This document shows, piece after piece, positions 390-21,062 of a stretch of DNA of 64,000 nt (positions are counted from its first letter, which is position 1; each line of letters opens with the position of its first letter). The DNA is taken from the IMG/VR virus record IMGVR_UViG_3300047557_002530. One strand, given 5' to 3'. Source of the stretch: a virus (lineage: Duplodnaviria > Caudoviricetes). Under the pieces are notes generated by a model, which saw nothing but the letters and a program-made list of their open reading frames with translations, was not told where the DNA came from and did not search any database. Both the position numbers and the translations under genes were made by a program.

Positions 390-419
390 TTGACAGAACC
401 CCTGTCAAACCCTTATAAT
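390..419 (+). promoter_or_regulatory. sigma70-type promoter with an internal inverted repeat
   Basis: TTGACA(390)-18 nt-TATAAT(414); inverted repeat TTGACAG-N5-CTGTCAA overlaps the -35. Confidence 0.6.
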
Positions 420-441: not shown

Positions 442-657
442 ATGACTCTCACAGCAAAATTCAAGAAAGACGTTCAAACCCTCCGTGGTGCAGCAAACGG
501 TGATTTTTACCTTGATGTAAAGAATCCGAAACTTTATAAAAAGGTTCGTCGTTTTTATGAGAATGAAGGTGTAGTATTCTCTGGTGATCCTTTGGATGAT
601 TATGAAATGCTTATGGAATATGTTCTTGCCGATCTTGAATCTGTTGAAGTTGCTTGA
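442..657 (+). CDS. hypothetical cyanophage protein
   Basis: 71-aa ORF downstream of a promoter, phage-like codon usage. Confidence 0.75.
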   Translation: MTLTAKFKKDVQTLRGAANGDFYLDVKNPKLYKKVRRFYENEGVVFSGDPLDDYEMLMEYVLADLESVEVA

Positions 658-664
658 TTAAATA

Positions 665-708
665 GTCTCGGGATGACTATAAAAGCGTACTGGTCGGGAG
701 CAAACCCC
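665..708 (+). ncRNA. putative 5' segment of a manA/wcaG-like cyanophage structured RNA
   Basis: GC-rich non-coding stretch GTCTCGGGATGAC...CTGGTCGGGAG starting right after late-promoter core TAAATA (659-664); family assignment from memory, needs cmsearch. Confidence 0.4.
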
Positions 709-710
709 TT

Positions 711-944
711 ATGTCTAGATCTGATCTACTTCGTTGGATTGGAAACATTCTCCTCATAATTGGTTATCAAACTATGCTATGGGGAGAATTTAAATATGGT
801 TTAATGATAAAGGTTGTTGGGGGATTACTCACAGTACCCTTTGCAATTAAACTTAAACTTTGGGATGTATTATTTTTATGTGCCTTCTTTGGTATTACCG
901 AGATATCAAAGTTAACCCAACTTTTCTTAGTTTCTCAAAACTAA
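711..944 (+). CDS. small membrane protein (about 3 hydrophobic segments)
   Basis: 77-aa hydrophobic ORF; its stop lies inside the hairpin CTTAGTT-TCTCAA-AACTAAG. Confidence 0.7.
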   Translation: MSRSDLLRWIGNILLIIGYQTMLWGEFKYGLMIKVVGGLLTVPFAIKLKLWDVLFLCAFFGITEISKLTQLFLVSQN

Positions 945-992
945 GTGGTGGAGCCATTCATATAAATAATATTATGTAATAGTAAAATTTAT

Positions 993-1541
993 ATGAAGAC
1001 CTATTACACATATGCATACCTTCGTGAAAATGGAACACCATATTACATAGGAAAGGGAACTGGTCGTAGAGCATTTCATAAAAATCATAATGTTCCAAGA
1101 CCCACTAAAGATAAAATATTATTTTTGAAGAAAAACCTTTCTGAAGAGGATGCATTAAAACACGAAAAATATCTAATATCAATATTAGATAATCTTTTAA
1201 ACAGAAAAAGTGGTGGAAGTAAAGGAAGAACTCCATTAAGTGAAGAACATAAACTAAAAATTAGCAAAAAACTAAAAAAAGTTAGACCTTTACAAGTCAT
1301 TACTGAAGAACATAAAGATAATATCAAACACTCTGTAAAAAAGCATTGGGATTCTCTTTCTGAAGAAGAAAGAAATAAAAGAATTTCAAATTTTGTTAAA
1401 CCTTCAAAAAAAATTTTTATAGTTGATGGTAAAGAGTACATTGGTATTCAATCTATTATGGAACACTATAATATGACTAAAATGGAAGTTGCTAATAGAA
1501 TTTATAGTAAATCTAAAAAATGGTCTTCTTGGTGCCCGTAA
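993..1541 (+). CDS. GIY-YIG homing endonuclease with NUMOD3-like motif
   Basis: YYTYAYLRENGTPYYIGKG N-terminus, E and N catalytic-type residues, PLSEEHKLKIS motif; late promoter TATAAATA at 961-968. Confidence 0.9.
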   Translation: MKTYYTYAYLRENGTPYYIGKGTGRRAFHKNHNVPRPTKDKILFLKKNLSEEDALKHEKYLISILDNLLNRKSGGSKGRTPLSEEHKLKISKKLKKVRPLQVITEEHKDNIKHSVKKHWDSLSEEERNKRISNFVKPSKKIFIVDGKEYIGIQSIMEHYNMTKMEVANRIYSKSKKWSSWCP

Positions 1542-1566
1542 GATAAGGCACGTTAAATATTCTTGC

Positions 1567-1635
1567 TGGTGCGGATGGGACTCTCTCCCGCCTGGTTTCT
1601 TGCCTCCAGTCAAAGGGCAAGTGGCGAGCCTGAGT
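1567..1635 (+). ncRNA. wcaG-like RNA motif (pseudoknotted)
   Basis: GGGA/TCCC hairpin; CGCC/GGCG stem enclosing CTTGCC/GGCAAG hairpin whose loop CCAG (1606-1609) is complementary to CTGG (1592-1595); lies upstream of an NAD-dependent epimerase, the context known for wcaG RNA. Confidence 0.7.
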
Positions 1636-1640
1636 TACGT

Positions 1641-1676
1641 AGGTGGGTTGCATAAACCCACCTTTTTTTGTATAAT
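1641..1676 (+). terminator. intrinsic terminator overlapping a sigma70-type promoter
   Basis: AGGTGGGTT-GCATA-AACCCACCT-T tract; TTGCAT(1648)-17-TATAAT(1671). Confidence 0.8.
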
Positions 1677-1702: not shown

Positions 1703-2770
1703 ATGAGTGATTATAAAAAAACAGCACTTGTTCTTGGTGCTGGTGGCTTTATTGGAAGTCATATGGTAAAACGACTACGTGCTGAAGGTTATTGGGTACG
1801 TGGTGTCGATCTTAAACTTCCAGAGTATTCTGAGAGTGAAGCACACGAATTTGTTATTGGAGATCTTAGAGATCTTAATTTTGTAGAGAGAACTCTCCAA
1901 TACAAAGGACCTTATCGCAATTTTTATAACTTTGTTCCTAGTAGGTACATTGAAACCTTTGATGAGATTTATCAGTTTGCTGCTGATATGGGTGGTGCGG
2001 GATTCGTTTTCACTGGCGAGAACGATGCAGATATTATGCATAACTCCGCAACCATCAATCTCAATGTCCTTGAGGCACAACGCCAACTAAATGATTTTAA
2101 AGGCGTAAATAAAACCAAGATCTTCTATTCTGGGTCTGCGTGCATGTATCCAGAACACAATCAGTTAGATCCTGACAATCCAGATTGTCGTGAAGAATCA
2201 GCATATCCTGCCAACCCAGACTCTGAGTATGGTTGGGAAAAACTTTTCTCTGAGCGACTATTTTTCGCTTATCATCGTAACTATGGGATCCCTGTTCGGG
2301 TTGCTAGGTATCATAATATCTTTGGACCTGAAGGAACCTGGGAAGGTGGAAGAGAAAAAGCACCTGCAGCGATCTGTCGTAAAGTCGCATATCTTCCAGA
2401 GAAAGGTGGAACCATTGATGTGTGGGGAGATGGTTTACAGACTCGTTCCTTCTTGTATATTGATGAATGCATCGAAGCAACCCGCAGAATGATGGATAGT
2501 AATTTTATTGGACCCGTTAACATTGGTTCTGAAGAAATGGTTACTATCAATCAACTCGTAGACACTGCTGCTAAAGTTGCTAGTAAGGTTGTAGAGAAGA
2601 ATCATATTGATGGACCTCTTGGAGTTCGTGGACGTAACTCAAATAATGATCTCATTCGCGAAAAACTTGGGTGGGACTATTCACAAAGTCTTGAAGAAGG
2701 TATTCGTAAGACTTATAATTGGATTAAAAAACAGATTGATAAAAAAACAGTAGCACATCACCCTGTATAG
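1703..2770 (+). CDS. NAD-dependent epimerase/dehydratase, GDP-mannose 3,5-epimerase-like
   Basis: GAGGFIG Rossmann motif, FAADMGGAGF, SSAC-like SGSACMY, YGWEK (YxxxK). Confidence 0.92.
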   Translation: MSDYKKTALVLGAGGFIGSHMVKRLRAEGYWVRGVDLKLPEYSESEAHEFVIGDLRDLNFVERTLQYKGPYRNFYNFVPSRYIETFDEIYQFAADMGGAGFVFTGENDADIMHNSATINLNVLEAQRQLNDFKGVNKTKIFYSGSACMYPEHNQLDPDNPDCREESAYPANPDSEYGWEKLFSERLFFAYHRNYGIPVRVARYHNIFGPEGTWEGGREKAPAAICRKVAYLPEKGGTIDVWGDGLQTRSFLYIDECIEATRRMMDSNFIGPVNIGSEEMVTINQLVDTAAKVASKVVEKNHIDGPLGVRGRNSNNDLIREKLGWDYSQSLEEGIRKTYNWIKKQIDKKTVAHHPV

Positions 2771-20929: not shown

Positions 20930-20968
20930 GAAACGCTAACGATTCTTAACATTGTTAAACACCCGCTA

Positions 20969-21062
20969 ACCGAGACCTATGGGTGTATAAAAACGTCTCT
21001 CATACCCACAGTGGAGGGTGCTGTGGGGAATAATCGTATCAGTTCGTCCCCCCGAACTTTTA
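20969..21062 (+). ncRNA. PhotoRC-II-like psbA leader RNA
   Basis: GAGAC...GTCTC stem, CCCACAG/CTGTGGG hairpin around GAGGGTG, AGTTCG/CGAACT hairpin, directly 5' of psbA. Confidence 0.7.

Follow-up and report, generated by a model that had tools for sequence, protein, structure and literature searches.

A probable four-module RNA array containing the wcaG motif in T4-like cyanophage DNA, with genes at its junctions and a predicted endonuclease cassette in place of a wcaG stem

The DNA analysed here, referred to as the window, is a stretch of 64,000 nucleotides from the IMG/VR virus record IMGVR_UViG_3300047557_002530; it is T4-like cyanophage DNA, part of a 92-kb record, and the database sequences closest to it, at about 75% DNA identity, are those of Synechococcus myoviruses (Kyanoviridae). 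Near its start lies a complete wcaG RNA (Rfam RF01761) that is followed by a composite terminator/promoter and a nucleotide-sugar epimerase gene, and is preceded by two short structured segments (modules 1 and 2), a 77-codon membrane-protein open reading frame (ORF) and a predicted homing-endonuclease gene (Table 1). An earlier note on this DNA, made from the letters alone, had described three structured pieces (665-708, 921-953 and 1567-1635), the ORF, the endonuclease gene and the terminator, all of which were present on re-inspection, and had read them as one wcaG/manA-like RNA split by the two genes. The explanation that we favour, with a probability of roughly 70% for the whole, is that a single transcription unit (390-1676) carries a chain of four related RNA modules, that genes were set into the junctions of this chain, and that the endonuclease came in on a cassette that replaced the P1 stem of wcaG. 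As part of this explanation, the wcaG motif of Rfam would represent modules 3 and 4 of the chain, each module having a hairpin, then a box of the UGG(U/C)G type and then a second, closing hairpin.

Table 1. Features of the wcaG locus, in window coordinates
Feature	Position	Strand	Remarks
Sigma-70-type promoter-like site	390-419	+	TTGACA, 18-nt spacer, TATAAT; hexamers 12/12 to consensus (promoter scan)
71-codon conserved cyanophage ORF	442-657	+	phrog_552, E 5e-26
Module 1 (piece 1)	662-708	+	Hairpin, A-rich linker, CUGGUCGG box, closing hairpin
Module 1, A-type hairpin	663-667/675-679	+	7-nt loop
Module 1, CUGGUCGG box	690-697	+	
Module 1, short closing hairpin	697-699/705-707	+	GGG/CCC
77-codon membrane-protein gene	711-944	+	phrog_2318, E 5e-20; two predicted hydrophobic stretches
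Module 2 (piece 2)	926-955	+	H-type hairpin and GUGGUGGAGCC tail
Module 2, hairpin	926-932/939-945	+	3′ arm holds TAA stop (942-944) of the 77-codon ORF
Module 2, GUGGUGGAGCC tail	945-955	+	
Predicted free-standing homing-endonuclease cassette	956-1566	+	611 bases; late-promoter-like box, endonuclease ORF, substitute P1
T4-late-promoter-like box TATAAATA	961-968	+	Near cassette start
Predicted endonuclease ORF	993-1541	+	182 codons
Complete wcaG RNA (RF01761)	1530-1635	+	cmscan 80 bits, cut-off 42, model positions 1-98 of 98
wcaG, substitute P1	1538-1545/1560-1566	+	Endonuclease stop codon (1539-1541) inside 5′ arm
wcaG, junction UGGUGCGGA	1567-1575	+	
wcaG, P2	1576-1580/1586-1590	+	
wcaG, P3	1599-1604/1616-1621	+	
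wcaG, tail	1622-1635	+	
Composite terminator/promoter	1641-1676	+	PeSL-like; covaries, layout kept in relatives
Terminator stem	1641-1649/1655-1663	+	9 bp
Terminator T-run	1663-1669	+	
-35-like TTGCAT in terminator loop	1648-1653	+	3/6 to consensus
Extended -10 TGTATAAT	1669-1676	+	17-nt spacer from TTGCAT
NAD-dependent nucleotide-sugar epimerase/dehydratase gene	1703-2770	+	Pfam PF01370, E 5e-36

The Rfam model was filled from end to end by the window sequence without a single non-standard pair; P1, P2 and P3 were all formed, and the conserved junctions of the motif were present (UGGUGCGGA..., ...GUUUC and GUGGCGAGCC...). This is the only wcaG RNA in the whole 92-kb record. The third piece of the earlier note holds the core, P2, P3 and tail of the RNA, but the Rfam match starts at 1530 rather than at 1567. 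None of the contexts surveyed had an insert within the Rfam motif itself. The manA-like character proposed for the RNA was not borne out, as the manA model (RF01745) gave no match in the window at its gathering score and none in 400-1800 at expect values (E) up to 10. The manA search itself works, since the model does fire on contig L124 (L numbers denote contigs and loci of relatives), where a manA RNA of 87 bits at positions 1-167 is cut off by the contig end about 3.8 kb upstream of a module-1-plus-hairpin unit. As L124 illustrates, manA and wcaG-type elements can share one genome region, and this has been reported for S-CREM1 (PMC9964418). Weinberg et al. (2010, PMC2864571) considered the wcaG motif a probable riboswitch that stands in front of exopolysaccharide or high-light genes; we found no ligand or mechanism in the published descriptions, and our data neither confirm nor exclude that description. 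A peptide ORF of 68 codons running through wcaG, annotated in S-SRM01, was rejected, its frame being shifted among relatives by 1-nt indels. At that locus (L010, 1801-2025) the membrane-protein homologue is unannotated, the 68-codon ORF through wcaG being annotated instead.

The two segments upstream of wcaG resemble parts of it. Module 2 is an H-type hairpin followed by GUGGUGGAG, a pattern like that of wcaG P3 and its tail, and the Rfam model matched 921-955 to P3 and tail with a score below its threshold (18 bits, E 1.5), with 25-32 bits in relatives. The relatives were obtained by scanning viral contigs with the 77-codon protein, which yielded 80 loci encoding proteins 90-100% identical to it; this set is dominated by one lineage. 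The seven pairs of the module-2 hairpin were formed in 100% of 41 distinct relatives, two of the pairs having changed on both sides, and contiguous, ORF-free copies of the module (L115, L118, L148 and L151) carried other compensatory stems. The UUUCUU-hairpin-AAGUGG module that had been noticed in the second and third pieces is therefore shared beyond chance, as judged from the sub-threshold alignment and the compensatory changes in relatives. The small hairpin that usually follows module 2 is missing from the window, where the cassette stands in its place. At two loci (L105 and L109) module 2 was followed directly by the terminator/promoter, without wcaG. In ACG-2014f (L011, 1981-2100) the tail of the module looked like a mixture of two wcaG sequences, that of the junction and that of the tail. 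The syntenic place in Sf-CH5 (L001, 1989-2125) held a short hairpin with a CUGGCGAGCC-type tail and then a terminator/promoter; it gave no wcaG match at E up to 1, and this remnant looks like a decayed or minimal unit.

Module 1 generally has a hairpin of 4-5 bp around a 7-nt loop, then an A-rich linker leading to the CUGGUCGG box, and lastly a closing hairpin that varies between copies; it appears to correspond to the 5′ half of a wcaG-type unit. On contig L133 the Rfam model scored module 1, the next hairpin and a tail together as a full-length wcaG (43 bits), placing the CUGGUCGGGAUGG... stretch of module 1 on the wcaG junction and P2, and in several contigs A-type hairpins stood in for P1 right before the wcaG core. 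A pattern scan with a variable gap found module 1 in at least 118 viral contigs, and among 185,579 prokaryotic species genomes in only two contigs of metagenome-assembled genomes. Its stem has changed on both sides, from AGUC/GACU to AGAC/GUCU, ACGUC/GACGU and ACGCC/GGCGU. The alignment of these stems was pre-selected for pairing; in a search without a pairing requirement, which provides the unselected check, at least four of the five pairs formed in 152 of 181 distinct copies. Single-sequence folding z-scores (+0.25 for piece 1 and -1.6 for piece 2) were uninformative alone. The covariation and the frequent G.U pairs in the module hairpins point to RNA-level structure on the + strand. In every close relative module 1 lay directly before the membrane ORF, whatever stood further upstream, and in the window it ends at 708, the ATG following at 711. 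Copies of module 1 were also seen right after tRNA-Leu or between tRNA genes (L005, 1201-1253; L006, 1201-1247; L007, 1201-1248; and L136, L138, L214, L220 and L227), and in S-IOM18 and S-RS29 tRNA-Leu is the annotated feature under the module-1 match. That module 1 is itself a tRNA or a tRNA fragment was considered and set aside; neither ARAGORN nor the Rfam tRNA model called it, though tRNA genes adjoin it in several phages.

The modules and the wcaG core are linked in most of the contexts that we surveyed; the counts rest on purpose-written patterns, and those from viral scans are lower bounds. Module 1 or module 2 lay within 110 nt upstream of the wcaG core in 46 of 75 independent contexts and within 450 nt in 64. 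Module 2 was directly upstream in 24 of these contexts and module 1 in 14; either module was found at 60-110 nt in eight and at 110-450 nt, with an ORF between, in 18; and 11 had no module by the patterns used, several of them being pattern misses. Seen from the other end, 82 of 95 distinct module-1 contexts had a wcaG core downstream. The arrangements were module 1, membrane ORF, module 2 and then wcaG directly (40 contexts), module 1 fused directly to the wcaG core (12), an unbroken run of module 1, module 2 and wcaG (11), short units of module 1 plus a hairpin (8), the double-interrupted layout of the window (6), modules 1 and 2 contiguous with an insert before wcaG (5), module 1 without a wcaG core downstream (8), and others, several beside tRNA genes (5). 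Gene content at both junctions differed between relatives, and the inserts at the junction of module 2 and wcaG included, besides the endonuclease gene, small ORFs of various kinds. Loss of both upstream pieces (665-708 and 921-953) from relatives without the endonuclease gene would, by the earlier note, have spoken against its idea; however, both were retained in 80 of the 80 relatives fetched via the membrane-protein gene, almost all of which are without the endonuclease gene. The earlier idea of a modular RNA that tolerates insertions holds in that related, linked modules have inserts at their junctions, but the unit concerned would be the four-module array and not the Rfam motif. When RNAalifold was applied to eleven uninterrupted arrays, the supported helices were all local; the one long-range helix proposed, which would join module 1 to the tail of wcaG, was rejected, being without covariation and clashing with a covarying local hairpin.

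The membrane-protein ORF between modules 1 and 2 is by all indications a genuine gene: tblastn found homologues in 160 cyanophage records, variable sites were distributed 25/9/49 over codon positions 1/2/3, and codon differences were synonymous in 332 cases and non-synonymous in 85. Its last seven codons and stop form the module-2 hairpin, and the stop lies in the 3′ arm, as had been observed earlier. Because the module-2 hairpin is kept, with nearly the same sequence, in arrays that have no membrane ORF, the gene appears to have been inserted at the module 1-2 junction and to read into the hairpin. In S-SRM01 and L114 the homologue has no ATG at the usual start position.

The endonuclease gene was absent from 78 of the 80 membrane-protein loci; it was present in two, and three more loci were found via the endonuclease protein. 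The alignment of endonuclease-free relatives to the window ended at 956 and restarted at 1567, with about 40 bases between. Where the window has the cassette, module 2 of these alleles is followed by the small hairpin, then by some 8 nt and then by a canonical P1; the closest of them (L079, 99% identical on the right side) likewise shows the small hairpin, a short spacer and a canonical wcaG P1. From this comparison, the 611-base cassette has evidently replaced about 44 bases that included the native wcaG P1, and the endonuclease gene sits inside the array, between module 2 and wcaG, much as the earlier note had placed it. The hairpin at the 3′ end of the cassette was accepted as P1 by the Rfam model and overlaps the endonuclease stop codon. 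This substitute P1 paired in all five gene-carrying alleles. Its 6 bp are perfect in L014-L017, where the endonuclease ORF, of 187 codons, continues through the stem and stops within the loop. The window and L013 differ by a C-to-U change, which brings the stop codon forward and makes one P1 pair a G.U. Alleles with the endonuclease gene scored 78-82 bits with the wcaG model, those without it 92-103 bits. The substitute P1 resembles, with compensatory differences, a natural P1 type that precedes other wcaG copies (Sf-FS3, L279, L287, L309 and L320), a likeness that suggests that the cassette first settled next to a wcaG copy with such a P1.

Identity of the window to L013 and L014 was 98-100% only over about 900-1600, and was 80-94% to the left and 66-84% to the right. 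The gene-carrying alleles have one common P2 version and two different compensatory P3 versions, and the ratio of non-synonymous to synonymous substitution rates (dN/dS) of the endonuclease gene was 0.03-0.18, a sign of purifying selection. In L016 and L017, downstream of positions 2690 and 1135, respectively, the block of endonuclease gene and wcaG precedes a non-epimerase gene, and identity to the window is at background after the terminator; the different downstream gene fits shuffling at the terminator/promoter cassette. The mosaic identity, the shared P2 with two P3 versions, the purifying selection and the context in L016 together argue that the cassette has spread horizontally with short co-converted flanks, of which the left one would be the module-2 hairpin and the right one P1-P2. 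The enzyme would presumably cut alleles lacking its gene, at or near the junction of module 2 and wcaG. Near the start of the cassette is a TATAAATA box, which is the consensus of T4 late promoters; 11 such boxes were seen in the window against 5.7 expected.

The product of the cassette gene is predicted to be a free-standing nuclease of the GIY-YIG/NUMOD type. Its invariant residues Y, Y, G, R and E fit the Y...Y...YIGKG..R...E pattern, and a profile search against PDB returned a GIY-YIG protein (E 0.08) over the YIGKGxGxR stretch. The AlphaFold2 model had a predicted local distance difference test score (pLDDT) of 86; when this model was used in Foldseek, the best matches were UvrC GIY-YIG domains (probability 0.99, template modelling score 0.5-0.57, E 0.03), and its C-terminal part matched the I-TevI DNA-binding domain 1i3j (probability 0.90). 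Many of the 120 homologues listed among 1,172 contain NUMOD3; of 31 homologues that were aligned, 18 have NUMOD3 (PF07460) and seven gave a weak match to the LEM-3-like GIY-YIG family.

Downstream of wcaG, the strong terminator with a predicted embedded promoter before the epimerase gene, described earlier, is indeed present, and its layout was conserved in 38 of 41 aligned relatives, with a covarying stem, a -35-like sequence in the loop (TTGACA, TTGCAT or TTTACA) and TATAAT 17 nt on; in several relatives the hexamer in the loop is a perfect TTGACA. The embedded promoter of the window has a -35 that matches at only 3/6 positions and for that reason was not listed by the promoter scan. By a cruder pattern, a T-run plus -10 box followed 40 of 75 wcaG cores. 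Terminator stem types assorted independently of P2 types, and a conserved anti-terminator between wcaG and the terminator was rejected on this ground. Composite terminator/promoter cassettes of this kind (PeSLs) have been described for T4-type phages, in which PeSL-mediated gene shuffling is documented (PMC2839356, PMC4122927). Homologues of the epimerase are annotated likewise in cyanophages, and the epimerase gene is the usual downstream neighbour of wcaG. In the window the terminator and embedded promoter lie between the two; in other phages (Sf-FS3, S-SCSM2R and L279) wcaG stands 12-40 nt before the start codon without a terminator.

At the other end of the locus, the promoter-like site starts right after a tRNA-Met gene (316-389), and it is the likely start of a unit that ends at the terminator (1641-1669), the whole being one likely early transcription unit. 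ARAGORN called this tRNA-Met and, before it, a 90-nt tRNA-Ile with anticodon UAU (224-313); the Rfam tRNA model reported neither of them at its gathering score in a whole-window scan. The 71-codon ORF at the head of the unit is syntenic in Bellamy, SynMITS9220M01, Sf-CH5, S-SRM01 and S-CAM7. Elsewhere in the window, a full-length PhotoRC-II RNA (RF01717; 81 bits) lies at 20947-21041.

Taken as a whole, the locus can be explained as follows. A unit running from a consensus promoter to an intrinsic terminator (390-1676) would carry four related RNA modules, of which modules 1 (662-708) and 2 (926-955) would be upstream relatives of the halves of wcaG; in other cyanophages the four lie next to one another. 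As the modules fold locally, the junctions between them could accept inserted genes. In this lineage a membrane-protein gene would have entered the module 1-2 junction so as to end inside the module-2 hairpin, and in this genome and a few others an endonuclease cassette would have entered the module 2-3 junction, ousting the small hairpin and the native P1. The 3′ end of the cassette would supply a substitute P1, and the wcaG fold would thereby be kept. The array may be a cis-acting sensor at the end of an early unit, riboswitch-like or protein-binding, with modules that fold independently; we hold such a role in cis on the RNA with moderate confidence. Binding of a ligand or protein might then alter how stable the unit is, or how much transcription reads through into the sugar-nucleotide genes, which would also be expressed from their own embedded promoter. 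A further-reaching version, which we consider doubtful, is that the wcaG motif is the 3′ half of a cyanophage-restricted array of about 200 nt, in which the modules are autonomous, repeated binding sites and not a single metabolite aptamer, and mobile genes (the membrane-protein gene, small ORFs and the homing endonuclease) colonise the junctions. The endonuclease would then persist because it rebuilds the stem that it destroys, and a protein would be a more likely partner of the repeated units than a ligand.

Several observations weigh against the four-module explanation and the sensor role attached to it. No covariation was seen in the small closing hairpin of module 2. The absence of supported long-range pairing by RNAalifold means that the modules may form one RNA only in the sense of one transcript. 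The endonuclease protein of the window had no match to Pfam, including GIY-YIG (PF01541) and NUMOD3, its GIY-YIG assignment resting on motif and fold, and the Foldseek E-values were only 0.03 or higher. The independent recombination of terminator and P2, with no conserved anti-terminator partner, weakens a classical riboswitch-terminator mechanism, and the embedded promoter would allow transcripts of the epimerase gene whose leader lacks wcaG.

The most serious rival, although in our judgement an unlikely one, is that wcaG together with its terminator forms a separate small RNA, either one that is processed from the 3′ untranslated region and acts in trans or one that sequesters a protein, and not a cis-regulator of the epimerase gene. 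A strong terminator followed by the promoter of the next gene after wcaG, as in 40 of the 75 contexts, is typical of small RNAs derived from 3′ ends, and several GGA-containing loops recur along the array. However, wcaG lies 12-40 nt before a start codon with no terminator in Sf-FS3, S-SCSM2R and L279, and endonuclease-free alleles have no promoter directly upstream of wcaG. Nor was such a promoter found in the window, where wcaG is at the 3′ end of the unit that starts from 390-419; the earlier note had suggested that the RNA may be an independent transcript. A CsrA-type partner for the GGA-rich loops would be speculation, no such protein having been found in the 92-kb record.

It is more unlikely still that modules 1 and 2 are recombination or regulatory cassettes acting at the DNA level, analogous to PeSLs, with a likeness to wcaG that reflects shared recombination history. 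Direct repeats of similar boxes (CUGGUSGG...CCCC) do lie on either side of the membrane ORF, the genes present at both junctions vary, and PeSL shuffling is known in T4-type phages (PMC2839356, PMC4122927). Against this, pairing in the hairpins is kept through compensatory changes, and the G.U pairs, if read on the opposite strand, would become A.C mismatches; the orientation of the modules always matches that of wcaG; the promoter/terminator scan found no promoter or terminator consensus within the modules; and module 1 is also found within clusters of tRNA genes, which are transcribed as RNA. The covariation and the strand specificity of the G.U pairs make a purely DNA-level role the less likely one.

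The reading of the earlier note, a single wcaG/manA-like RNA assembled from three separated pieces with the ORF and the endonuclease gene interrupting the motif itself, is in our view very improbable. The pieces do have sequence modules in common, and piece 2 aligns weakly to wcaG P3 and tail, but 1530-1635 alone fills model positions 1-98 with 80 bits, manA had no match at E up to 10, and endonuclease-free relatives have a complete wcaG downstream of, and excluding, piece 2. With a contiguous, full-length match satisfying the Rfam motif by itself, the literal idea of a split wcaG fold is wrong. Finally, a self-splicing intron with an endonuclease gene, whose removal would restore the array, can be dismissed: endonuclease genes in structured RNA genes are often intron-borne, but group I and group II intron models gave zero matches in 400-1800 at E up to 10, the ORF takes up 549 of the 611 bases and leaves 62 non-coding bases, too few for a ribozyme core, and joining of the flanks would not recreate P1.

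The four-module explanation bears on how wcaG, an orphan riboswitch candidate, might be approached. The usual presence of homologous modules upstream, and of uninterrupted arrays in some phages, changes the construct to be used for ligand or protein screens and for structural work. A terminator and promoter often stand between wcaG and the "regulated" gene, which puts the simple leader model in question. The swap of P1 by the endonuclease cassette amounts to a natural stem-swap experiment, and it indicates that P1 pairing, rather than P1 sequence, is probably under selection. The cassette would also be an example of a selfish gene that limits its own damage to a structured RNA without being an intron.

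The wcaG RNA, free-standing GIY-YIG endonuclease genes and PeSLs are already known kinds of element. We did not find, in Rfam or the literature searched, the two upstream homologous modules and the putative four-module array, the regular use of inter-module junctions by genes, or an endonuclease cassette whose own coding 3′ end appears to take the place of a candidate-riboswitch stem. The free-standing GIY-YIG homing endonucleases of T4-type phages are the Seg proteins, with an I-TevI-like architecture. Like these, the window gene is a short ORF; its product is predicted to have a GIY-YIG-like domain at the N-terminus and a DNA-binding module at the C-terminus. It is likewise bordered by conserved sequences, comes with a late-type promoter-like box of its own, is present or absent among close relatives and has flanks that look co-converted. 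Their places are in tRNA clusters or between genes for proteins, whereas this gene lies inside an array of structured, candidate-regulatory RNA; in addition, the 3′ end of its coding sequence also serves as an RNA stem, and the Pfam GIY-YIG model does not match it. Multi-module regulatory RNAs include tandem riboswitch aptamers and the multi-hairpin RNAs of the CsrB/RsmZ type; the array would share with them the repetition of similar hairpin-plus-box units on one (here predicted) transcript, whereas, in contrast to the CsrB/RsmZ type, no CsrA gene was found in the record and the window modules are separated by protein genes. The segment 1641-1676 resembles PeSLs (PMC2839356, PMC4122927) in joining an intrinsic terminator to a sigma-70-type promoter at the border of variable genes, but its -35 lies in the terminator loop and the cassette follows an RNA motif; PeSLs were described in phages of enterobacteria and vibrios, with no mention of cyanophages in those reports (PMC2839356, PMC4122927). 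Compared with the wcaG motif as defined (RF01761; PMC2864571), the window RNA is likewise full-length, with P1-P3, the conserved junctions, a cyanophage origin and an epimerase gene downstream. It differs in that P1 is foreign, longer-looped and cassette-borne and overlaps the endonuclease stop codon, in that two related modules lie upstream outside the Rfam model, and in that a terminator and promoter precede the epimerase gene, so that the RNA is probably not a simple 5′ leader.

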